A DNA stretch of 64,000 bases from Gammaproteobacteria bacterium (GTDB taxonomy: Bacteria; Pseudomonadota; Gammaproteobacteria; Steroidobacterales; Woeseiaceae), in assembly GCA_029863125.1 (NCBI GenBank), contig JAOTWB010000001.1, positions 79,605 through 143,604 on the forward strand, in the 5' to 3' direction. The notes under the pieces are model-generated. The model ran no database searches. It saw nothing but the letters and a program-made list of their open reading frames with translations, and was not told the DNA's origin. The translations under genes and the position numbers were made by a program. This document shows, in pieces, positions 26,767-36,585 of the stretch (the stretch's first letter is position 1; the number at the start of each line of letters is the position of its first letter).

Positions 26767-26932
26767 CAATTATCCCAGCATATGAAACGTCAATATCCTT
26801 ACTTTGCTACGATATCACAGCCGTTGTGATCTGCCCGACAGGGTCAATTCCCGATGACCTGGCGGCCACTACGGGTACATCCCCGCCAAGGGGGATATAC
26901 TGAGCGAAAAGCGGCCGTGACGCCGTGAAAAA

Positions 26933-27598
26933 ATGGGGAAACGCATGGTAGAGACTGCTCTCATTGGGCCATTGGCCGGACACGCTGAGTTTGACTCGTT
27001 GATCGCGAGACTTGCCGACGAATACGACGCCGATAAAGCCGAGGTGATACGCGCGCAGATTATCGACCAGTTTGCTGTTGAAGGCACCGTGTTCATATCG
27101 GACATGGCGAGCTTTTCCAGTACATCCCGAAAGCGCGGCGTATGCCATTTCCTGAAGTTGATTCATCGCGCCAGGCAAATAATTGCTCCAATCATCGCTG
27201 CTAACAACGGCAGATTACTTAAATGCGAGGCCGACAACTGCTATGCCTTCTTCAAAACGCCGGACGAGGCTATCCGGGCGAGCTTCGACATCAATGCAGC
27301 ACTGTTTGAATCGAATCGCGCATTTGAACTCGACGAGCATATTTTTCTGTCAGTGGGTATCGACTACGGCCGTGTATTACTCGTTGGCGACAAGGACTTT
27401 TTCGGGGATCCGGTAAATACCGCTTCGAAGCTCGGCGAAGATCTCGCCATCCACGCCGAGACCCTGGTAACCAAGCGCGCGCTCGAACACTCCAATTTTC
27501 GGGTCCCGGAGCTCGCCGAACGCATGGTGGCGCGAATATCAGATATAGAGATCAAGTACGTTCGACTCCCGATGACCGCAGAAACGGAGAGCTACTGA
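26933..27598 (+). CDS. stand-alone class-III adenylate/guanylate cyclase-homology domain protein
   Basis: 221 aa. Metal-Asp regions are VFISDMASFS and LKCEADNCYAFF. The text SVGIDYGRVLLVGDKDFFGDPVNTASKLGE matches the cyclase transition-state/dimer region. Confidence 0.7.
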   Translation: MGKRMVETALIGPLAGHAEFDSLIARLADEYDADKAEVIRAQIIDQFAVEGTVFISDMASFSSTSRKRGVCHFLKLIHRARQIIAPIIAANNGRLLKCEADNCYAFFKTPDEAIRASFDINAALFESNRAFELDEHIFLSVGIDYGRVLLVGDKDFFGDPVNTASKLGEDLAIHAETLVTKRALEHSNFRVPELAERMVARISDIEIKYVRLPMTAETESY

Positions 27599-27601
27599 TA
27601 C

Positions 27602-28858
27602 ATGGCCCAGGGTATCGACGACACGCAGGCGCTGCGGCAGATCCTCGAGGTCACGCGCAAGCTGGCTGCGCCTTTCGATCTCGATACGATGCTCGCCGAG
27701 GTTGTCGATGCCTCCCGCAAGGTGCTCAATGCCGACAGAGGCACTGTCTTTCTTTACGACAGCGAAGCCGACGAGCTCGTAGTGCGCGTCGGTACGGGGC
27801 TGGAGCAAATCCGTATCCCGGCCGATAAAGGCATCGTCGGCGAATCCGCGCAGACGCGAAAGCTCATTAACGTACCGGACTGTTACGCAGACGATCGCTT
27901 CAACCGTGACATAGACAGGCAATCTGGCTATCGCTCGCGTTGCATGTTGACCATCCCGTTGATTGGTTACGAAGACTCCCTCGTTGGTGTACTGCAGATA
28001 CTCAACAAGAAAAACGGCGTTTTCGACGACAAGGACGAATTCGTAGCCCAGGCGCTCGCCGCGCAGGCCGCCGTGGTACTGCATCGCGCCGCTGTCACGG
28101 AACAGATCATTGAGTCCGAACGCCTGGACCGGGAAATTACGGTCGCCCGCGACGTTCAAATGGGCACCTTGCCCAAGAGAATGCCGGAGATCAGGGGCTA
28201 CGAGTTTGGCGGCGCATTTGCACCGACCGACCAAACCGGGGGCGACCTTTACGATTTTGTGCCTCTCGACGACGAGCGCTTGTTCCTGTTGATGGGTGAC
28301 GCAACCGGGCATGGTATCGGTCCGGCGCTTAGTGCCACACAGGTTCGCGCCATGCTACGCGTAGCCATCCGGCTGAACTCGAGCCTCGATGACGCTTTTG
28401 TGCAAATCAATAATCAGCTCTGCGAGGACCTGCCCGACGACCGTTTTGTCACGGGGTTCTTCGGCCTGCTGGACGCAACGACCAACACGATAACGTTTCA
28501 CTCGGGCGGCCAGGGCCCAATCATGCACTTCCATGCACGACGCAATGAATACGACTGGCACGAAGCAACGACATTCCCATTAGGCTATATGCCGCAAACC
28601 GATCTGCATCAGGCAGTCGTCAAGACGCTGGAGCCAGGCGACGTGCTCGGCCTGATTTCCGATGGCATCTATGAGTATGAAAACGAATCCGGCCTGCAGT
28701 TCGGCCAGCAGGGTGTCATCAACATCATTGACAACAATCCTGACGCAAGTGCTCAGGAACTCGTGAATTTGATCATGCACGGCGCCAGGAAACACGGCGG
28801 CTCCGCCCCGCAGGCCGACGACATTACCATCGTGCTCGCGCGACGGCTTCCGGAGTAA
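27602..28858 (+). CDS. GAF domain + PP2C (SpoIIE/RsbU-type) serine phosphatase
   Basis: N-terminal GAF-like region of about 160 aa (LNADRGTVFLYD...GIVGESAQT...). PP2C motifs are GGDLYDF, MGDATGHGIGPAL, ISDGIYE and DDITIVL. Confidence 0.85.
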   Translation: MAQGIDDTQALRQILEVTRKLAAPFDLDTMLAEVVDASRKVLNADRGTVFLYDSEADELVVRVGTGLEQIRIPADKGIVGESAQTRKLINVPDCYADDRFNRDIDRQSGYRSRCMLTIPLIGYEDSLVGVLQILNKKNGVFDDKDEFVAQALAAQAAVVLHRAAVTEQIIESERLDREITVARDVQMGTLPKRMPEIRGYEFGGAFAPTDQTGGDLYDFVPLDDERLFLLMGDATGHGIGPALSATQVRAMLRVAIRLNSSLDDAFVQINNQLCEDLPDDRFVTGFFGLLDATTNTITFHSGGQGPIMHFHARRNEYDWHEATTFPLGYMPQTDLHQAVVKTLEPGDVLGLISDGIYEYENESGLQFGQQGVINIIDNNPDASAQELVNLIMHGARKHGGSAPQADDITIVLARRLPE

Positions 28859-28873
28859 CGCGTCCCGAACAAA

Positions 28874-29275
28874 ATGCACAGACAGTTCGCCAGAGATTAC
28901 GATTCCCTCGCCGCCATTTATGAGTTCGCGGAAGAGATTCTTGCGGCGAACGAGATTGGTGAGGCCGTCCGTTTCCCGGTACACCTCGCAATGGAAGAAC
29001 TGTTTACCAACATGGTGAAATACAGCCCGGATACCGACGGTGACATCGGCGTCGATGTTGTGGTTGAGGGAGGCGCTGTAACGGTTACGCTGACCGAAGA
29101 TGATGTCGATGAATTCGACGTCACCCGGCCCAGCGGTGCCGATACTACCTCCCCGCTTGCGGAGCGAACGCCCGGTGGACTCGGTCTACACCTGCTGCAC
29201 AATATCGTCGATAAACTCGAGTACGACTACCATAACCGACGAAGTAGAGTAATATTTACCAAGGAGTCAGGATAA
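28874..29275 (+). CDS. RsbW/SpoIIAB-type anti-sigma factor serine kinase (HATPase_c)
   Basis: 133 aa. N-box is MEELFTNMVKY and the G-box is TPGGLGLHLLHNIVD. Confidence 0.8.
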   Translation: MHRQFARDYDSLAAIYEFAEEILAANEIGEAVRFPVHLAMEELFTNMVKYSPDTDGDIGVDVVVEGGAVTVTLTEDDVDEFDVTRPSGADTTSPLAERTPGGLGLHLLHNIVDKLEYDYHNRRSRVIFTKESG

Positions 29276-29279
29276 CAAT

Positions 29280-29576
29280 ATGTTCGAAATCGACTACGGC
29301 GACGACGGGAAGATCAAGTGCAGCGGGCGATTGGACGCCTCGCAATGCGAAAAAGCACAGTCGTTCATGGACGACATCGCCGATACCCGGACACTGGATT
29401 TTTCCGGACTGGAATATATCTCCAGCGCCGGTCTGGGTATACTGCTAAAGACGCAGAAACGGCTGGCCGAGAGTGGCGCAGCGTTAAAAATAACCAACGT
29501 CAACAATCACATATACGACGTATTCCGCTATTCTGGCTTCAACGCCATTTTCGACATTAAAGCAAAAGAACAATAA
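29280..29576 (+). CDS. STAS-domain anti-sigma-factor antagonist (RsbV/SpoIIAA-like)
   Basis: 98 aa. Phospho-Ser context is LEYISSAGLGILL. AGGAG-like RBS. It starts 4 nt after the kinase gene. Confidence 0.8.
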   Translation: MFEIDYGDDGKIKCSGRLDASQCEKAQSFMDDIADTRTLDFSGLEYISSAGLGILLKTQKRLAESGAALKITNVNNHIYDVFRYSGFNAIFDIKAKEQ

Positions 29577-29621
29577 GTCGAATCTCGTCTTGACCAACTT
29601 TTTGCCGGGTCAGTTGTACGT

Positions 29622-30161: not shown

Positions 30162-30922
30162 TGGCTATTCTGCAAAAGTATCTGGACCTGATCAACGCCG
30201 ACATCGACGGTGAAATCGGCGACAGCGATCGGGCCGAATTACAGGCTTTCCTGGCCGAAAGTGCCCAGGGCCGCGCTCTACATCAAGAGCTTGCCTTGCT
30301 GTGTTCGACGCTCGATGACGTCGATACAATTGACCCGCCACCGCACATGCGGCACATGATCATGAACGCCGTGAAACCCATCCGGGCGATCCCCCAGTCC
30401 CAGGGCTACCTCAAAAAGCTATTCGCGATGCCGGCTCTGACGCACGCCATCACTTTTGCAGTGGGTGTTGTCCTTACGTTGAGCCTGCTGAGCTCCGGGC
30501 AGATTTCAACCCGGGCCTTCGACGATGTCACGGGACTCGTTGGTACGATCGCCGAACCCATCAGTGTCGGCGTTTCCAGCGCTGTGTCATTCGACAAGCC
30601 CGAAGTCGCAGGCAAAGTGTCACTGCGCCGCTCCGGCGCCATGCTCATCCTGGACATGGACCTCGTAGCCACAGCGCCCATCGAGATAGAGGCCGACTAC
30701 ACGGACAGAACGATCTGGTTTAACGGTTTTGCGCAGCTCGAGAGCACTGGCACCAGGATCTCGACCGAGACTGGCCGTGTAAGACTGGGCATAGAGGGCA
30801 AACGGCGCTTTGCCGTTTACCTGCAGAACAAGGCCGAAAGGGACACTACGATCAATTTGCGTTTTTTAGTGGATGGGAAAGTCGTGCACGAAGCGAACCT
30901 CGACTACACGCCCACCCGGTAG
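30161..30922 (+). CDS. putative single-pass membrane anti-sigma factor
   Basis: TAATG overlap with the sigma gene. It has a roughly 75-aa cytoplasmic helical N-terminus, one TM (AITFAVGVVLTLSLL) and a periplasmic domain of about 140 aa. No HxxxCxxC zinc motif is present. The call rests on position and topology only. Confidence 0.6.
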   Translation: MAILQKYLDLINADIDGEIGDSDRAELQAFLAESAQGRALHQELALLCSTLDDVDTIDPPPHMRHMIMNAVKPIRAIPQSQGYLKKLFAMPALTHAITFAVGVVLTLSLLSSGQISTRAFDDVTGLVGTIAEPISVGVSSAVSFDKPEVAGKVSLRRSGAMLILDMDLVATAPIEIEADYTDRTIWFNGFAQLESTGTRISTETGRVRLGIEGKRRFAVYLQNKAERDTTINLRFLVDGKVVHEANLDYTPTR

Positions 30923-31045
30923 GGTCCATGAAATGGTCTGCTTTTCAGGCAATTACGAATGGACACCAACCTTTTCATGCCTGGGATGTATTACCAGGTA
31001 GAACAGACAGTGAATAGCCCCGATGGGGCCAAAGGGGAAGACGAC

Positions 31046-32404
31046 ATGGCAACGAGTAACAAGGCAATTCCGCTAATCCTGGTCGGCGTTGCAGCACTCG
31101 CCGTAATAGCTTACTTCGGAATGAAATATCCGCCGGGCGGTGATGATGTTGCCGGTACGGTAGCTCCGGCCGAGCGCTATCGTGCAGAGCAGCCGGGCGC
31201 GGATGATATTGCACTCGGCGATACGGAGATTCAAAGCCTGTTGCAGACCGACTACATCGATCGGCTTATTCGCGACGATGATTTCGTCAAGTTAATGGGC
31301 AACGCCGCGTTTTCAGCAGCGCTCGGCAACGCCGATTTCGCAAGGGCTCTGGGTAATGCGGATTTCGCAAGAGCATTGGGTAACGCGGATTTCGCGAGAT
31401 CGTTGGGCAGTGCCGATTTCTCACGCGCTATCGGCAACGCCGATTTTTCAAGAGCCCTGGGTAACGCAGATTTCGCCAGAGCACTCGGCAATGCCGATTT
31501 CGCGCGCGCTCTCGGCAACGCAGACTTCGCAAAAGCCCTGGGTAGCGCAGACTTCTTGAGAGCACTCGGTAATGCTGACTTCTCGCGCGCACTAGGCAAC
31601 GCGGACTTTTCGAGAGCACTCGGTAACGCCGACTTTTCGAGAACGATCGGCAACGCGGACTTTTCGAGAGCACTCGGAAATGCCGATTTTGTGAGAGCAA
31701 TGGGCAACGCAGACTTTGCCAGAGCAATGGGCAATGCAGACTTTGTGCGGGCCCTGGGCAGTGCCGACTTTGTCCGGGCATTGGGAAGTGCGGACTTTGC
31801 AGCCGCGAGGGCGAATGCCGACTTTAACCGCGCAATGGGTAACGCGGACTTTGCGCGAGCCATGGATAACGCGGACTTTGCGCGAGCCCTGGGTAATGCG
31901 GACTTTGCGCGGGCTATGGGTAATGCGGACTTTGCGCGGGCTGTGGGTAACGCGGATTTTGCACGGGCTATGGGCAATGCAGACTTTGCGCGGGCTTTGG
32001 GTAGTGCAGACTTTGCGCGGGCTTTGGGTAGTGCAGACTTTGCCAGGGCTATCGGTAATGCCGACTTCTCACGTGCGCTCGGCAACGCAGACTTTGCCAG
32101 GGCTATCGGTAATGCCGACTTTGCCAGAGCACTCGGCAACGCAGACTTTGCACGAGCACTCGGTAACGCAGACTTTGCACGAGCACTCGGCAACGCAGAC
32201 TTTGCACGAGCACTCGGTAACGCAGACTTTGCACGAGCACTCGGTAACGCAGACTTTGCACGAGCACTCGGTAACGCAGATTTTGCAAGAGCGCTCGGTA
32301 ACGCAGACTTTGCACGAGCACTCGGTAATGCTCAGTTTGCGAGGGCTTTGGGTAATGCGCAATTCACGAACGCCCTAGCCAACCGTCAGTTTGCACGGGA
32401 GTAA
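31046..32404 (+). CDS. membrane-anchored nonapeptide-repeat protein (about 41 x GNADFARAL)
   Basis: The ATG at 31046 lies 7 nt after GGGGA (track start 30959 is also possible). One TM, AIPLILVGVAALAVIAYFGM, is followed by a short linker and then 368 aa of uninterrupted 9-aa repeats up to the stop codon. Confidence 0.75.
   Translation: MATSNKAIPLILVGVAALAVIAYFGMKYPPGGDDVAGTVAPAERYRAEQPGADDIALGDTEIQSLLQTDYIDRLIRDDDFVKLMGNAAFSAALGNADFARALGNADFARALGNADFARSLGSADFSRAIGNADFSRALGNADFARALGNADFARALGNADFAKALGSADFLRALGNADFSRALGNADFSRALGNADFSRTIGNADFSRALGNADFVRAMGNADFARAMGNADFVRALGSADFVRALGSADFAAARANADFNRAMGNADFARAMDNADFARALGNADFARAMGNADFARAVGNADFARAMGNADFARALGSADFARALGSADFARAIGNADFSRALGNADFARAIGNADFARALGNADFARALGNADFARALGNADFARALGNADFARALGNADFARALGNADFARALGNADFARALGNAQFARALGNAQFTNALANRQFARE
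31298..32401 (+). repeat. in-frame 27-nt tandem repeat array, 40 full units + 1 truncated
   Basis: I checked the unit register by hand. Unit 1 starts at 31298, unit 31 at 32108, and units 32-38 (32135..32323) are almost identical at the DNA level. The 5' units carry many synonymous differences. Confidence 0.95.
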
Positions 32405-32497: not shown

Positions 32498-32537
32498 AAT
32501 ACTGCGAACGGGGCCGTTCGCAGTATTTGTTCTTTTT
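32498..32537 (+). terminator. rho-independent terminator after the repeat-protein gene
   Basis: 13-bp perfect stem AATACTGCGAACG / CGTTCGCAGTATT with loop GGGC, followed by TGTTCTTTTT. Confidence 0.85.
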
Positions 32538-32563: not shown

Positions 32564-35533
32564 ATGCAAGAATCAATACCTCAACGCGTGCTGGCAATAC
32601 TGCTGCTCGGCTCGACGCAGCTGGCCAGCGCGGCCGAACTGGGCGAACTCGAAACCCAGGATTTCAGGCTGCTCTACTTCGACACGACACAGACTTATCT
32701 AACACCTCACGTCACAATAGGCTTTCACAATTCACTCGAGCGCCAGCGCTCAATCTTCGGATACGACCCTGACGAACGAACTACGGTTCTGTTGAAAGAT
32801 TTCTCTGACTACGCGAATGCGGCTGCCGGCGCTATACCTAGAAATACTGTGCAAGTGGACGTATCGCCGATGAGTTTCGCATTCGAAACGATGCCGGTGG
32901 GTGAGCGAATGACCACCATCATGAATCACGAGCTGGTGCATGTGGCGATGATGGATCAGCCTAATAGTAGCGATCGTCGCTACCGGCGCTTCTTTGGCGG
33001 CAAAGTTTCACCCGTTTCGGAACACCCGGAGACTATGTTCTATTCCTATTTGACTAACCCGCGCGTCTGGACGCCGGGCTGGTTCCTGGAGGGCAGTGCA
33101 ACTTTTCTGGAGACCTGGCTGTCGGGTGGGCTCGGCCGCGCCCTCGGCGCATACGACGAAATGGTATTTCGCGCGATGGTTCGCGACGGCGCACATTTCT
33201 ATGACCCTCTAGGACTCGTTGCAGAAGGAACAAAGGTCGACTTTCAAGTAGGCATCAATAGCTATCTTTACGGTACGCGTTTTATGAGTTATCTCGCCTA
33301 CACGTATACGCCGGAAATGCTTATTCAATGGATAGGACGTCACGATGGCAGCGAGCGCAATTACCGGTCACAGTTCCAGAAAGTTTTTGGAATTCGGCTC
33401 GTGGACGCTTGGCAGAACTGGATCGATTGGGAGCATGAATTTCAGACAAATAATCTGGAATCCGTGCGGCAATACGAAATTACGCACCACGAAGACATTA
33501 CTGATCAATCTCTTGGTTCTATATCGCGGGCGTATTTTGATCCAGAATCGAGGACGCTTTACGCGGCATTTAGATACCCGGGCGTCGTGGCGCATATCGG
33601 TGCATTGTCAGTTGACGACGGTTCGATCGAAAAGATCGTGGACATCAAGGGCCCGATGATCTTCCGGGTTTCGTCGCTGGCATACGATGCCGACTCGAAC
33701 ACGATTTACTACACGACCGACAACTACGCGCATCGTGATCTCGTATCGCTAGACATCAGGACGGGCAAGACCCGTATCCTGCAGAAGGACGCTCGAATCG
33801 GCGAGCTCGTGTACAACAAAGCCGACAATTCGATTTGGGGCGTGCGGCATTTGAATGGGCTGGCGACTCTCGTCCGAATCCCGTATCCCTACGACGAGTG
33901 GAATCAGATTCATACTTTCGACTATGGGCAGGTACTTTATGATTTAGACATTTCTCCAGATGGCAAACTAGTCTCGACCTCGATGGGCCAAGTTGACGGC
34001 GGACAGTCTGTTCGCGTAATGAATACCGAAGCTCTTTTGACGGGAGATACTACGCCAGTGGCCGAATTTGACGTTGGTCGAGCCGTACCGGAGGGCTTTG
34101 TCTTCTCCACCGATGGTCGATTTCTCTACGGCAGCTCTTACTACACGGGTGTATCCAACATCTGGCGATACGAACTCGATAGCGAGCGTCTTGAGATCGT
34201 AAGCAATACCGAGACGGGTTTTTTCCGACCGATACCGTTGGCAGACGGGTCGCTCATCGTTCTCCGCTATACGGGCACAGGTTTCATACCCACAATTATC
34301 GATCCCAAACCTTTGGAAGACGTAAATCCAATTACGTTTCTTGGTCAGCAAGTCGTCGTCAAGCACCCGCAAATTGGCGAATGGCAGGTGCGCGCGCCCA
34401 ACGAAGTATCTCTGGATGAGCTGGTTGAATCGGAGGGACACTACACACCCATTGCCAATCTGGGATTGGAGTCTTTTTATCCGATTGTTGAAGGTTACAA
34501 GGACTCGTACGCGCTGGGTCTCAATGTGAGCTTTTCCGACCCGATCATGTTTGACACTCTGAACATTAAGGCTTCGTACAGCCTTGATAGCGATCTACCC
34601 AGCAACGAGCTTATGCATGCAAGCATTGACTATCGGCACGTTGTTGCCGACGCAACTGCGCTCTCGGGCGTCTGGTCTGTCGGATTTCGACACAACTATG
34701 CCGATTTTTACGACCTCGCGGGCCCGACGGAACGCAGTCGCAAAGGCAATCGATTTTCCGTTGGTTACGAAAAGTCATTGATCTACGACGAACCCAGACT
34801 GTTGGATCTTTCGGCAGAACTCAATCACTACACAAACCTGGATAGTCTGCCACGCTACCAAAATGTGCCCGCATCGCTTGATGAATTGTCGACCTTGAGC
34901 GTCGATCTTAACTATTCGAATCGGCGCAGATCCCTGGGGGCCGTTGATTACGAAAAAGGATTCAACTGGCGGCTGGCGACGACAGTAGATCATGTAGACG
35001 GCGATACGATTCCCAAGGTCGTCGCGGGCTTCGATTTTGGGCTTGCCTTGCCGTGGAAACATTCATCCATCTGGTTACGTAATTCAGCTGGTGCAGCATT
35101 CGGCGAGCCGGACGATGAATTCGCGAACTTCTTTTTCGGCGGATTCGGCAATAACTATGTTGATCGCGGCTCGATCAAGCGCTATCGGGAGTTTTATGCG
35201 ATGCCCGGCTTTGAACTTAACCAAGTACCGGGTCGGAATTTTCACCGCGCCATGCTCGAGTGGAACCTTCCACCGATACGATTCAAGCGTGTCGGCACCC
35301 CGGGCTTTTATTTGAGCTGGGCACGGCCCGCAGTGTTCGTTAGCGCATTGACGACGAACCTCGACGACGCCTCGATTCGACAGGAGGTACAAAGCGCCGG
35401 CGTGCAAATCGACTTCAGGTTTACAGTACTCTCTCGCATGAATATGACCTTGTCGTTCGGTTATGCCGAAGGGTTCGGTGGAGACACTGTCGCCGATGAC
35501 AACGAGTTCATGGTGTCACTCAAAATACTGTAG
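32564..35533 (+). CDS. secreted 989-aa protein: gluzincin-like HExxH domain + beta-propeller-like repeats + C-terminal Omp85-like beta-barrel (tentative)
   Basis: Signal peptide MQESIPQRVLAILLLGSTQLASA. Motifs IMNHELVHVAMMD and the downstream WFLEGSATFLE. PD40/TolB-like strands are DISPDGKLVSTS and FSTDGRFLYGSS. The C-terminal third has alternating beta-strand text with FFGGFGNNYVDRGSIKRY. The domain assignments come from motif recall only. Confidence 0.55.
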   Translation: MQESIPQRVLAILLLGSTQLASAAELGELETQDFRLLYFDTTQTYLTPHVTIGFHNSLERQRSIFGYDPDERTTVLLKDFSDYANAAAGAIPRNTVQVDVSPMSFAFETMPVGERMTTIMNHELVHVAMMDQPNSSDRRYRRFFGGKVSPVSEHPETMFYSYLTNPRVWTPGWFLEGSATFLETWLSGGLGRALGAYDEMVFRAMVRDGAHFYDPLGLVAEGTKVDFQVGINSYLYGTRFMSYLAYTYTPEMLIQWIGRHDGSERNYRSQFQKVFGIRLVDAWQNWIDWEHEFQTNNLESVRQYEITHHEDITDQSLGSISRAYFDPESRTLYAAFRYPGVVAHIGALSVDDGSIEKIVDIKGPMIFRVSSLAYDADSNTIYYTTDNYAHRDLVSLDIRTGKTRILQKDARIGELVYNKADNSIWGVRHLNGLATLVRIPYPYDEWNQIHTFDYGQVLYDLDISPDGKLVSTSMGQVDGGQSVRVMNTEALLTGDTTPVAEFDVGRAVPEGFVFSTDGRFLYGSSYYTGVSNIWRYELDSERLEIVSNTETGFFRPIPLADGSLIVLRYTGTGFIPTIIDPKPLEDVNPITFLGQQVVVKHPQIGEWQVRAPNEVSLDELVESEGHYTPIANLGLESFYPIVEGYKDSYALGLNVSFSDPIMFDTLNIKASYSLDSDLPSNELMHASIDYRHVVADATALSGVWSVGFRHNYADFYDLAGPTERSRKGNRFSVGYEKSLIYDEPRLLDLSAELNHYTNLDSLPRYQNVPASLDELSTLSVDLNYSNRRRSLGAVDYEKGFNWRLATTVDHVDGDTIPKVVAGFDFGLALPWKHSSIWLRNSAGAAFGEPDDEFANFFFGGFGNNYVDRGSIKRYREFYAMPGFELNQVPGRNFHRAMLEWNLPPIRFKRVGTPGFYLSWARPAVFVSALTTNLDDASIRQEVQSAGVQIDFRFTVLSRMNMTLSFGYAEGFGGDTVADDNEFMVSLKIL

Positions 35534-35571: not shown

Positions 35572-36585
35572 ATGATCGGAGACTTCTTTTTACACGCCCT
35601 GCTCGGTCTGCTCCCTGTCTGCTGCTTTCTGGCAGCACTCATGTATCTCGACAGCTACAAACTGATACCAATGCGCTGGATTCTCGGCACGATCGCGCTT
35701 GGCTGTGGCACCGCTATCGTCAGTTACCCCTTAAACATCATCGGACTCGAGTGGCTCGACATCGGGTTCGTCACGTTTTCTCGCTATGCCGCCCCGGTCG
35801 TTGAAGAGGCACTAAAAGCACTGGTAATAATCATGTTGGTGCGTCGCAATCGCATCGGCTTTCTCGTCGATGCCGCGATCTTCGGTTTCGCAGTGGGTAC
35901 CGGATTCGCGATATTCGAGAATTTGTTCTATCTACAGGCGCTTCCCGACACGAAACTGGGCACCTGGATCGTGCGGGGCTTCGGCACCGCATTCATGCAC
36001 GGTGGTACCACAGCTATTTTCGCTATCGTGTCGCACACGCTCGCAGGGCAGAAGCTGACCAGGGGCCGAGCCGTGTATATACCGGGGTTCGTTATCGCCG
36101 TCATTGTGCATTCGGTCTTCAATCACTTTTTCTTTGCACCGATCGTCAACACGCTGTTGATACTGGTCTCGCTGCCAATTTTGCTTGCGGTCGTATTTCA
36201 GCAAAGCGAAAAATCAGTATCGGAATGGCTTGGCATGGGATTCGATGCCGATGCCGAGCTGCTCGAACTCATCAACTCGGGCGAGCTGTCAACTTCCAAG
36301 GTCGGTAAGTACCTGCATTCGCTCAAGGAGAAGTTCGAGGGTCCTGTCGTTGTCGATCTCTTGTGCTACCTGCGTTTACATGCCGAACTTTCAATGCGGG
36401 CCAAAGGTCTTCTCATGATGCGCGAGTCCGGATTTGCCAATAAAACCGGCGAGGAAACCAAGGCGAAACTCGAGGAACTCAAGTTCCTCGAGTCCAGTAT
36501 TGGTCCTACCGGTTTATTGGCGATGAAGCCATTTCTCGAGATGAGCCAGAAAGACCTGTGGCAGCTCTACATGCTGTCAAACTGA
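35572..36585 (+). CDS. PrsW-family intramembrane metalloprotease with cytoplasmic C-terminal extension
   Basis: PrsW signatures are VVEEALKAL (EExxK), GTGFAIFENLFY, GTAFMHGGTTAIF and VHSVFNHFFF. The soluble tail of about 130 aa begins at SEKSVSEW. Confidence 0.75.
   Translation: MIGDFFLHALLGLLPVCCFLAALMYLDSYKLIPMRWILGTIALGCGTAIVSYPLNIIGLEWLDIGFVTFSRYAAPVVEEALKALVIIMLVRRNRIGFLVDAAIFGFAVGTGFAIFENLFYLQALPDTKLGTWIVRGFGTAFMHGGTTAIFAIVSHTLAGQKLTRGRAVYIPGFVIAVIVHSVFNHFFFAPIVNTLLILVSLPILLAVVFQQSEKSVSEWLGMGFDADAELLELINSGELSTSKVGKYLHSLKEKFEGPVVVDLLCYLRLHAELSMRAKGLLMMRESGFANKTGEETKAKLEELKFLESSIGPTGLLAMKPFLEMSQKDLWQLYMLSN

Follow-up and report, generated by a model that had tools for sequence, protein, structure and literature searches.

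The window analysed here is the whole 64,000-nucleotide stretch taken from contig JAOTWB010000001.1 of a Woeseiaceae gammaproteobacterium. Near its middle lies a gene for a membrane-anchored protein that consists almost entirely of tandem nonapeptides. The gene follows those of an extracytoplasmic function (ECF) sigma factor and an anti-sigma factor, and precedes those of a 989-aa protein with an HExxH domain and of a PrsW-family intramembrane protease (Table 1). Comparison with related loci, in many of which the same module is fused to an anti-sigma domain, shows that the repeat protein corresponds by homology to the ectodomain part of an anti-sigma factor, without being one itself.

A 6-residue N-terminus and one transmembrane (TM) helix open the protein; a juxtamembrane (JM) segment of 58 residues follows, and then the repeat array, encoded by 41 in-frame units of 27 nt. 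The enclosing open reading frame (ORF; 30959-32404, + strand), present in the ORF list, offers an alternative ATG at 30959. The start at ATG 31046, as first proposed, was preferred because it lies 7 nt after the Shine-Dalgarno sequence AAGGGGA, because orthologues open with MATSNK at the same point, and because a conserved promoter-like motif (30966-30993) lies between the two ATGs, downstream of 30959. The GGGGA of the Shine-Dalgarno sequence is kept in the aligned orthologous upstream regions.

Cutting the array into 27-nt units confirmed the extent, unit count, near-invariant residues and variable positions 6 and 9 given in the preliminary description. The array has no insertions or deletions, and its final 8-codon unit reaches the stop codon. 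F5 is invariant among the 41 units, followed by A3 (40), G1 and A8 (38 each), D4 and R7 (37 each) and N2 (35). Tandem Repeats Finder reported a period of 27 (also 81) over 31318-32328. Unit-versus-unit differences at codon positions 1, 2 and 3 are 0.20, 0.10 and 0.58, and the proportion of differing synonymous sites between units (pS) is 0.78, against 0.13 for nonsynonymous sites (pN; ratio 0.17). The array is far beyond chance, it is coding on the + strand, and its units are selected at the protein level. Since pS is saturated while pN is 0.13, most units must be old in DNA and held constant in protein; units 32-38 alone are nearly identical at the DNA level.

Two independent assemblies of the same genome (L085 and L086) contain 34 units, versus 41 in the window. 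Their flanks show 0 mismatches to the window over 4 kb on each side, and their ORF matches that of the window exactly over its opening 1058 nt and its final 105 nt, the difference of 7 units (189 nt) falling in the DNA-homogeneous part of the array. A third contig of this genome (L087) terminates within the array. Because these assemblies disagree by 7 units, we give the copy number as 34-41; it is either polymorphic in the population or limited by short-read assembly. A non-coding array or an assembly artefact, the alternative raised from the start, was rejected in view of the coding selection, the same first ~26 units in independent assemblies and the conserved orthologues; the gene is real. 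The minus-strand ORF 31252-32193 and the other-frame ORFs within 31356-32378 were rejected as genes, being by-products of the stop-free repeat. They are long and thus open to mis-annotation by gene callers; one opposite-strand or other-frame ORF is 313 aa long, with repeats of (A/L/E)KSALP(S/I/R)A(R/L).

An initial homology search with the full protein gave 10 relatives only. The repeat had saturated the word pre-filter of this search, and the true family must therefore be much larger. Its marker is the TM helix together with the JM segment, GTIAPAERYRAEQ...DV.LGD...MQTD.F. AlphaFold2 (AF2) places the helix at residues 9-27, and its position is kept in 61 orthologues. The JM consensus from an alignment of 62 sequences is Pp...GTiapA.RYra..Q...DV.lgd...mQtD.f...D. 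The full family signature consists of a short basic N-terminus, the TM helix, (Y/F)PP...GT(I/V)(A/G)PA(E/Q)RY(R/Q)..Q...DV.LGD...MQ(T/S)D.F...D, and then the array. The window protein carries this signature as KYPPGGDDVAGTVAPAERYRAEQPGADDIALGDTEIQSLLQTDYIDRLIRDDDF, aligns with the 61 orthologues and with 20 database fragments, and shares the family trait of an Ala-rich tandem array extending to the C-terminus. Conserved as it is, the JM segment is a candidate protease or partner recognition site.

A profile of the JM segment matched 1065 representative proteins (clusters at 50% identity) at E ≤ 1e-3 and 479 at E ≤ 1e-10, among 1.84 billion. The matches begin at residues 1-20 in a stand-alone form of the protein or at residues 70-165 in a fused form. 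Most database entries of the family are short fragments from short contigs, because short-read assemblies break inside the arrays.

As the preliminary description had suspected, the repeat protein matches no curated family: searches of Pfam, NCBIfam and PADLOC yielded spurious summed scores or nothing. The whole-sequence scores of Pfam DUF3192 (38.7 bits) and DUF1641 (27.3 bits) lie above the cut-offs and must be summed repeat noise, since 0 stretches pass individually; 1 and 19 profile positions, respectively, were aligned. Similarly, no domain-level stretch passes for Pfam Cro and vATP-synt_AC39 or for NCBIfam CpcG1 and ogt, which are also repeat noise. The match to PDB entry 9e5c_0q, a eukaryotic LIM-domain protein (E 6.5e-21), is a low-complexity coincidence; the alignment sets GNADFARAL against the 18-residue Ala/Glu repeat EALNATETVEATEVAEAA with an accuracy of ~0.47. 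Zero matches to PADLOC defence models were obtained for five proteins of the cluster.

The GNADFARAL unit had been taken as the distinctive feature of the protein, and the conservation of the JM segment had not been singled out. The reverse is the case. The repeat unit itself is not conserved among orthologues, which use different units and periods, and the JM segment is the conserved part. Periods of 4, 6, 8, 9, 10, 14 and 20 occur across the family, with period 9 dominating in units such as GNADFARAL, RDASFSALL, ANADFANLM, SDAFRQALA, SADLQKALQ (~65 units in L052) and NNSGFAGLV. Period 10 (ARNPQAFAAM) is found in Alphaproteobacteria and some gammaproteobacteria, while other lineages have period 8 (NSATQRAV, AADGAAKG), 6 (DAASLK, ~39 copies), 14, 20 or 4. 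The 9- and 10-residue units share a theme: after an S/N/D cap come P/A/D/E, a residue that is acidic or small, and F/L, with A-(L/M) 3-4 residues further on. Array length ranges from ~50 to ~590 residues, and degenerate arrays were found at L002, L025, L029, L031 and L055. Units diverge fast: GNADFARAL in the window gives way to mainly RDASFSALL in L005, a locus with 71% identity in the 989-aa protein, and to ANADFANLM in L013. Divergent tails were observed at L053, L059, L064, L063, L074, L084, L067, L072, L012 and L022, with units that include SQAA and AAGQ (period 4), AQNPQAFAAL (period 10) and the DAASLK mentioned above. A gene position that is conserved while the repeat period turns over freely is an unusual case.

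Units that are near-identical within an array and different between lineages, in a gene that is a close neighbour of those for an Omp85-type barrel and two predicted proteases, could also be those of a polyprotein precursor. The HExxH domain and/or PrsW would then cut between units and release ~40 nonapeptide copies as a signal or an antimicrobial. We consider this very unlikely, given that there is no conserved inter-unit cleavage motif, that many orthologues have units that are irregular or degenerate, with periods anywhere between 4 and 20, that the family-wide conservation lies in the JM segment and not in the units, and that the fusion to an anti-sigma domain fits signalling.

The AF2 model, computed without an alignment, has the TM helix, a mostly coiled or low-confidence remainder of the first 63 residues, including the GTVAPAERYRAEQ core of the JM segment, and then one 7-residue helix per unit with GN between the helices (mean predicted local distance difference test score, pLDDT, 51). 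Signs of helix capping are also visible: an Asn/Ser/Asp cap, Pro next in many orthologues, an Ala/Leu/Arg-rich core and Gly after the helix, with F5 and L9 spaced i, i+4. Proline is favoured at the first position of a helix and is excluded from a helix interior or a beta-roll strand. From the AF2 helices together with the cap residues, the placement of Pro, the composition of the core and the i/i+4 spacing, we infer that the array is probably a chain of capped two-turn helices, forming a solenoid or segmented rod. In a Foldseek search, the nearest PDB folds to this low-confidence model were those of ARM/HEAT proteins (beta-catenin, importins), with query-normalised template modelling scores of 0.16-0.36. 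Like ARM/HEAT alpha-solenoids, the model stacks short helices into a superhelix; unlike them, its unit has 9 residues instead of ~40 and there is no sequence relationship. The matches are non-significant (E ≥ 3.6e-3), and the likeness is used here to describe the model only.

The preliminary description had envisaged an extracytoplasmic beta-roll or beta-fibre. A beta-solenoid akin to RTX or pentapeptide repeats is suggested by the tandem array of short units, by the period of 9 shared with RTX repeats and by the ADF core, since ADFxx is similar to the A(D/N)(L/F)xx core of pentapeptide repeats. The consensus is a different one, however. Only G1 and D4 are shared with the RTX motif GGxGxDxUx, no GG or GxD occurs, and with them the Ca-binding GGxGxD is missing. 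The array keeps strictly to a period of 9 (27 nt) and shows no autocorrelation at 5 residues, and neither RTX nor pentapeptide families were matched in Pfam or NCBIfam. Secretion as an RTX protein, which involves a C-terminal type I signal and adjacent secretion genes, is not indicated either: the protein has an N-terminal TM anchor, and its neighbours are sigma, anti-sigma, outer-membrane (OM) protein and PrsW genes, not type I secretion genes. The Ala/Leu/Arg-rich composition, the Pro right after the S/N cap in orthologues, the helix-capping features found in every unit and the 7-residue helices of the low-confidence AF2 model all point to helices, and the sole Foldseek resemblance, non-significant, is to alpha-solenoids. 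A beta-roll is thus highly improbable.

The relation of the repeat protein to anti-sigma factors comes from its fused relatives. Eight of the 10 relatives of the first search (P0001-P0008) consist of an anti-sigma domain, one TM helix, the segment GYPPIDGAQGTVGAAKRYQADQ... and 9-residue repeats of the ASPDFAKAL type. Their genes sit right after an ECF sigma gene and right before the gene for a ~981-aa protein, 50% identical to the 989-aa protein of the window, and that for PrsW. The fused N-terminus is homologous to the separate anti-sigma factor of the window (BLASTP E 3e-6; hhalign probability 99.6%, E 1e-23), and the window therefore has as two genes what these relatives have as one. The window repeat protein lacks the domain, with only 6 residues preceding the TM helix and the anti-sigma domain encoded by the upstream gene, the start of which (30161) overlaps the sigma stop codon. 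The remaining two relatives, P0009 and P0010, match a short form of P0008 lacking the anti-sigma domain; they may equally be truncated gene calls. Because a cytoplasmic anti-sigma domain precedes the same TM helix in the fused relatives, the repeats must be periplasmic, which agrees with the N-in/C-out topology proposed earlier.

A G-T-(I/V/M) motif is found in both membrane proteins of the window, at residues 128-130 of the anti-sigma factor (30542-30550), ~20 residues from the TM helix, and at residues 36-38 of the repeat protein (31151-31159), ~10 residues from it. Across 25 aligned separate anti-sigma factors, GT(I/M/V) is the sole near-invariant extracytoplasmic motif. The motif might serve both proteins as a recognition site for a protease or partner, or the coincidence could be due to chance.

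The best NCBIfam match of the sigma factor is to the SigW models, at 115.6, which is below the equivalog cut-off of 209. The 989-aa protein was modelled by AF2 with a 42-sequence alignment (pLDDT 78, predicted template modelling score 0.75). The model contains an alpha/beta plus helical domain with the HExxH motif, a propeller (residues 310-580) and a ~16-stranded barrel (630-989). Its best Foldseek match is TolB (E 1.6e-9), BamAP being also listed, and the barrel has a weak Pfam match to Omp85_2 (E 0.0023). The HExxH motif, HELVH, is invariant among the homologues, and its domain is covered by no Pfam family. This combination of predicted domains is unusual. The protein is most simply viewed as outer-membrane-anchored, with the propeller and the putative metalloprotease domain facing the periplasm. 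At least 5777 homologous clusters at 90% identity were found, all named hypothetical, and an identical copy, from a gammaproteobacterial metagenome-assembled genome (MAG), is annotated only as a hypothetical protein.

Table 1. Features of the repeat gene and its neighbourhood in the window.
Feature	Position	Strand	Basis or detail
Partner-switching trio: GAF-PP2C (27602-28858), RsbW-like kinase/anti-sigma (28874-29275), STAS (29280-29576)	27602-29576	+	Pfam
ECF-type promoter element before sigma gene, CCAACTTTT-N13-GTACGT-ATG	29594-29621	+	abuts sigma ATG
ECF sigma factor, 179 aa	29622-30161	+	Pfam Sigma70_r2 and r4_2
Anti-sigma factor, 253 aa: N-terminal anti-sigma domain, TM helix, GTI motif, beta-rich ectodomain of ~130 aa	30161-30922	+	homology
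ECF-type promoter-like element before repeat gene, CCAACCTTT (30966-30974), 13-nt spacer, GTATTA (30988-30993)	30966-30993	+	
Shine-Dalgarno sequence AAGGGGA	31032-31038	+	read from sequence; 7 nt before ATG 31046
Repeat protein coding sequence, 452 aa plus stop	31046-32404	+	homologues; codon-position asymmetry; pN/pS 0.17
Single TM helix AIPLILVGVAALAVIAYFGM, residues 7-26, type-II N-in anchor	31064-31123	+	sequence; AF2; orthologues
JM segment KYPPGGDDVAGTVAPAERYRAEQPGADDIALGDTEIQSLLQTDYIDRLIRDDDFVKLM, family signature	31124-31297	+	alignment of 62 sequences; profile search
Tandem array, consensus GNADFARAL, 40 nine-codon units plus one 8-codon unit	31298-32401	+	
DNA-homogeneous part of array	32017-32299	+	assemblies differ here by 7 units (189 nt)
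Intrinsic terminator: 13-bp stem, GGGG loop, then TGTTCTTTTT	32498-32537	+	hairpin (32498-32527) plus T-run
989-aa protein: signal peptide, HExxH domain, TolB-like beta-propeller, C-terminal Omp85-like barrel	32564-35533	+	AF2, Foldseek, Pfam
PrsW-family intramembrane protease	35572-36585	+	Pfam PF13367, E 5e-22

When one genome per species was scanned for the 989-aa protein, at least 586 relatives were confirmed, the closest being from a Woeseia MAG (71% identity). The best 80 loci of these fall in Gammaproteobacteria (Woeseiaceae, Steroidobacteraceae, Lysobacterales), Alpha- and Betaproteobacteria and Acidobacteriota (Vicinamibacteria). The repeat gene was sought by phmmer over all locus ORFs, using the first 114 residues (TM helix, JM segment and first repeats) as query, and was found directly upstream of the 989-aa homologue in 63/84 loci. 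Among the loci with no match, the upstream repeat-only ORFs of L012, L022, L032 and L038 are truncated by the contig end, L084 encodes a divergent fused protein with an (AAGQ)n tail, and the others have less than ~1.1 kb upstream of the 989-aa gene; two of these, L021 and L050, were matched by the full-length query. PrsW is encoded downstream of the 989-aa homologue in 74 of the 84 loci; an ECF sigma gene is not always near. The order of repeat gene, 989-aa gene and prsW is common to the window and the related loci: in Gamma-, Alpha- and Betaproteobacteria and in Acidobacteriota alike, the repeat gene immediately precedes those for a ~985-aa protein of this kind and PrsW in every locus with DNA available on that side. 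These three proteins form the invariant core.

Four genes precede the sigma gene in the window (26933-29576). They encode a cyclase-like protein (weak Guanylate_cyc match), a GAF-PP2C (SpoIIE) phosphatase, an RsbW-like HATPase_c_2 protein and a STAS protein, and look like a cytoplasmic partner-switching input tied to the membrane anti-sigma system. In 33-41 loci the GAF-PP2C/RsbW-like/STAS trio is found along with the cluster, in some cases on the other strand. In one of two closely related contigs (L001, 11493-14081, and L003, 11132-14077) the ~981-aa gene is divided into two ORFs, by a frameshift or sequencing error. In L072 (1932-5760; Caulobacteraceae, no adjacent sigma gene), a resistance-nodulation-division pair (HlyD-like adaptor and AcrB-like pump) lies directly upstream of the repeat gene, with the pump apparently divided into two ORFs.

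The presence of a TolB-like propeller on an OM barrel next to a protein with an N-terminal TM anchor and a long Ala-rich helical region recalls TolA and TonB, which also have a long low-complexity periplasmic region that varies between lineages (PMC12204202). The array could be a periplasm-spanning tether or mechanical probe, like domain II of these proteins, reaching from the inner membrane to the propeller of the OM protein; its length and stiffness would matter and not its sequence, and envelope spacing or the state of the OM would be read through PrsW cleavage. A unit sequence and period that are free to vary in an array that is always long would fit. We regard this possibility as doubtful. 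At ~50 to ~590 residues the array is too variable for a ruler, and a sigma-dependent promoter and a terminator of its own would be left unexplained. The hallmarks of TolA/TonB are the SHLS motif in the TM helix, the C-terminal domain III and adjacent motor genes (PMC12204202). Here, the helix AIPLILVGVAALAVIAYFGM has no SHLS Ser/His motif for binding a motor, and the repeats reach the stop codon, with neither a domain III nor any other conserved docking domain or motif at the C-terminus. The cluster contains no TolQR/ExbBD or Pal genes, and there is no sequence similarity.

The repeat gene appears to be under the control of the adjacent sigma factor. The sequence ACCAACYTTTT has 2 matches in the window (~0.06 exact matches expected), at 29593 and at the repeat-gene site, 28 nt before the sigma ATG and 81 nt before the repeat-gene ATG. 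In an upstream alignment of close relatives, ACCAAC.TTT and then GTA are invariant. AAC-N16-nGTA is the general architecture of ECF promoters. The element CCAACnTTT-N13-GTA precedes 36 of 45 sigma genes, and in 30 of them ATG or GTG directly abuts the GTAnnT hexamer, suggesting a leaderless or near-leaderless autoregulated sigma mRNA. The same element is found before 29 repeat genes, 74-145 nt 5' of the start of the TM-coding sequence and with constant spacing (GTA at offset 22). Indeed, 65 of the 69 matches in 2.3 Mb fall at sigma-gene or repeat-gene sites, where ~9 would be expected. Where the genes are fused, the element is internal to the anti-sigma ORF: it comes after the stretch for the anti-sigma domain and ahead of that for the TM helix, and is followed by a Shine-Dalgarno sequence and an ATG immediately before the helix (e.g., in L047). 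A second promoter candidate, TGAAAY-N19-TACGA, lies upstream of the first gene of the cluster (26783-26812) and of the repeat gene (30929-30958); it is conserved in no orthologous locus, is probably due to chance and was not retained.

Downstream, the strong terminator attributed to the repeat gene was verified as a 13-bp stem with a T-run, and a comparable hairpin and T-run separate the repeat gene from its downstream neighbour in at least 30/60 loci, across phyla. Because the promoter element precedes the repeat module in the split as well as the fused form, and a terminator often follows the repeat gene, the TM-JM-repeat protein without an anti-sigma domain appears to be a dedicated sigma output in both gene arrangements. 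The preliminary description had offered two roles, regulon output or sensory partner of the sigma/anti-sigma module, and each of them holds in part: the gene shares the conserved ECF-type promoter of the sigma gene, and its product is homologous to the ectodomain of the anti-sigma factors of its relatives.

The dedicated sigma-type promoter and terminator, with a monocistronic gene in the window, would also suit a stress effector or sponge, in which the induced array binds a harmful agent (protease, bacteriocin, phage protein or amphipathic peptide) and the sensor resides on the anti-sigma factor. A likeness can be drawn to RsiV, which binds lysozyme. Units that diverge fast even among close relatives, in an array that presents a multivalent repeated surface, are in line with such a role. 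We think it unlikely all the same: PADLOC gave no defence match, and the homogenisation within arrays can be explained by concerted evolution alone, degenerate arrays also being found.

The reading that we favour, at a probability of about 0.5, is that the repeat gene encodes a sigma-induced, inner-membrane-anchored sensor ectodomain lacking the anti-sigma domain, which is helical and probably a substrate or decoy of PrsW. A sensor arm that is cleaved is suggested because PrsW, the conserved, predicted-unstructured JM segment and a large ectodomain are all kept, and the link to prsW together with this JM segment is what points to a PrsW substrate. PrsW is the site-1 protease of RsiW (PMC3482391, PMC5358783), and bulky ectodomains sterically block the site-2 protease until they are removed (PMC11506125). 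By analogy with RsiW, the TM-JM-repeat module would be cut in or close to its JM segment when an envelope signal acts on PrsW, perhaps aided by the periplasmic HExxH/propeller protein. In the fused form, this clipping would strip off the bulky ectodomain, permit site-2 proteolysis and free the sigma factor. The freed sigma factor would transcribe its own operon and, from the second, dedicated promoter, the TM-JM-repeat protein without an anti-sigma domain, on a transcript that ends at the terminator. The induced copy would compete as a decoy for the protease or partner, and signalling would be damped or reset. In split loci such as the window, the repeat protein may also partner the separate anti-sigma factor, which shares the GT[IVM] motif outside the membrane.

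Several observations weigh against this reading. The window anti-sigma factor has its own, unrelated beta-rich ectodomain, and cleavage of the repeat protein alone therefore does not free the sigma factor. The promoter element precedes the repeat gene in only 29 of the 59 loci with enough upstream DNA, and some split loci show overlapping anti-sigma and repeat ORFs in its place. Sigma-dependent induction is equally compatible with a protective effector role. No ECF sigma gene was detectable within 8 kb in Alphaproteobacteria and in some Acidobacteriota loci that have the three-gene core, so that the function of the core may not be sigma control. Finally, AF2 confidence for the array is low, and all named homologues in the family are annotated as hypothetical. 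The probability that remains is left for readings beyond the five given here (the favoured sensor ectodomain, polyprotein, beta-roll, tether and sponge).

An ECF sigma factor under a membrane anti-sigma factor and PrsW-type proteolysis is already known in kind. The system most similar to ours is SigW/RsiW/PrsW of B. subtilis: the sigma factor is nearest to SigW models, a single-pass anti-sigma factor is encoded right after it, PrsW is encoded in the cluster, and the sigma gene is apparently autoregulated through the AAC-N16-nGTA promoter. The sigma score under the equivalog cut-off sets the window system apart, as do the Gram-negative hosts, the lineage-specific tandem-repeat array as ectodomain, the conserved OM HExxH/propeller/barrel partner, the linked GAF-PP2C/RsbW/STAS trio, and an ectodomain module that is apparently also made without the anti-sigma domain, from its own gene or an internal promoter. 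FecA-FecR-FecI likewise combines genes for an OM protein, for a single-pass inner-membrane regulator with a periplasmic domain and for an ECF sigma factor, and proteolytic release of the sigma factor is expected. The system described here differs in having neither a TonB-dependent transducer nor a FecR domain, in its Omp85-like OM protein with a propeller and HExxH, and in PrsW as the protease. DdvA (PMC11506125), a TPR-CHAT anti-sigma factor, was considered and is unrelated.

The literature searched held nothing on anti-sigma tandem-repeat ectodomains, on internal promoters or isoforms of anti-sigma factors or on Woeseia sigma factors, and no description of the cassette was found in the searchable literature. 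In its main text, the paper that re-classified ECF sigma factors (PMC7826278) is silent on PrsW, STAS, SpoIIE and PP2C. What is new is a sensor half formed by a lineage-specific, predicted tandem-helix array with a conserved JM signature; a sigma factor that would induce this half devoid of the anti-sigma domain, from a gene of its own or from one nested in another; the obligatory link of the module to an OM HExxH/TolB-propeller/Omp85 protein; and the occurrence of the cassette in several Gram-negative phyla, without annotation. More tentatively, the cassette may be a trans-envelope sensing machine shared by several phyla, with a rapidly diversifying tandem-helix sensor on an anti-sigma factor, the OM-anchored HExxH/TolB-propeller/Omp85 protein and PrsW as partners, a sigma-induced decoy encoded separately or, through an internal promoter and start codon, within another gene, repeats that serve as a bait or ligand surface (e.g., for proteases, bacteriocins or phage proteins), and a fold that would constitute a new class of 9-residue alpha-solenoid; we see this combination as possible and hold it with limited confidence.

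Pairs of ECF sigma and anti-sigma factors are a major bacterial signalling system, and what most anti-sigma ectodomains sense is unknown. The cassette is widespread yet entirely unannotated, partly since array-broken short-read assemblies leave the databases with fragments. A sigma-induced sensor isoform without an anti-sigma domain would be a feedback design that is undescribed for ECF systems in the searchable literature. Should the array fold as predicted, its alpha-helical repeat would have an unusually short period and be of interest to structural biology and protein design. Three features of the cassette are testable, namely a lineage-specific tandem-array sensor, the sigma-induced isoform of that sensor and a PrsW that would act in the Gram-negative envelope together with an OM protease/propeller protein.

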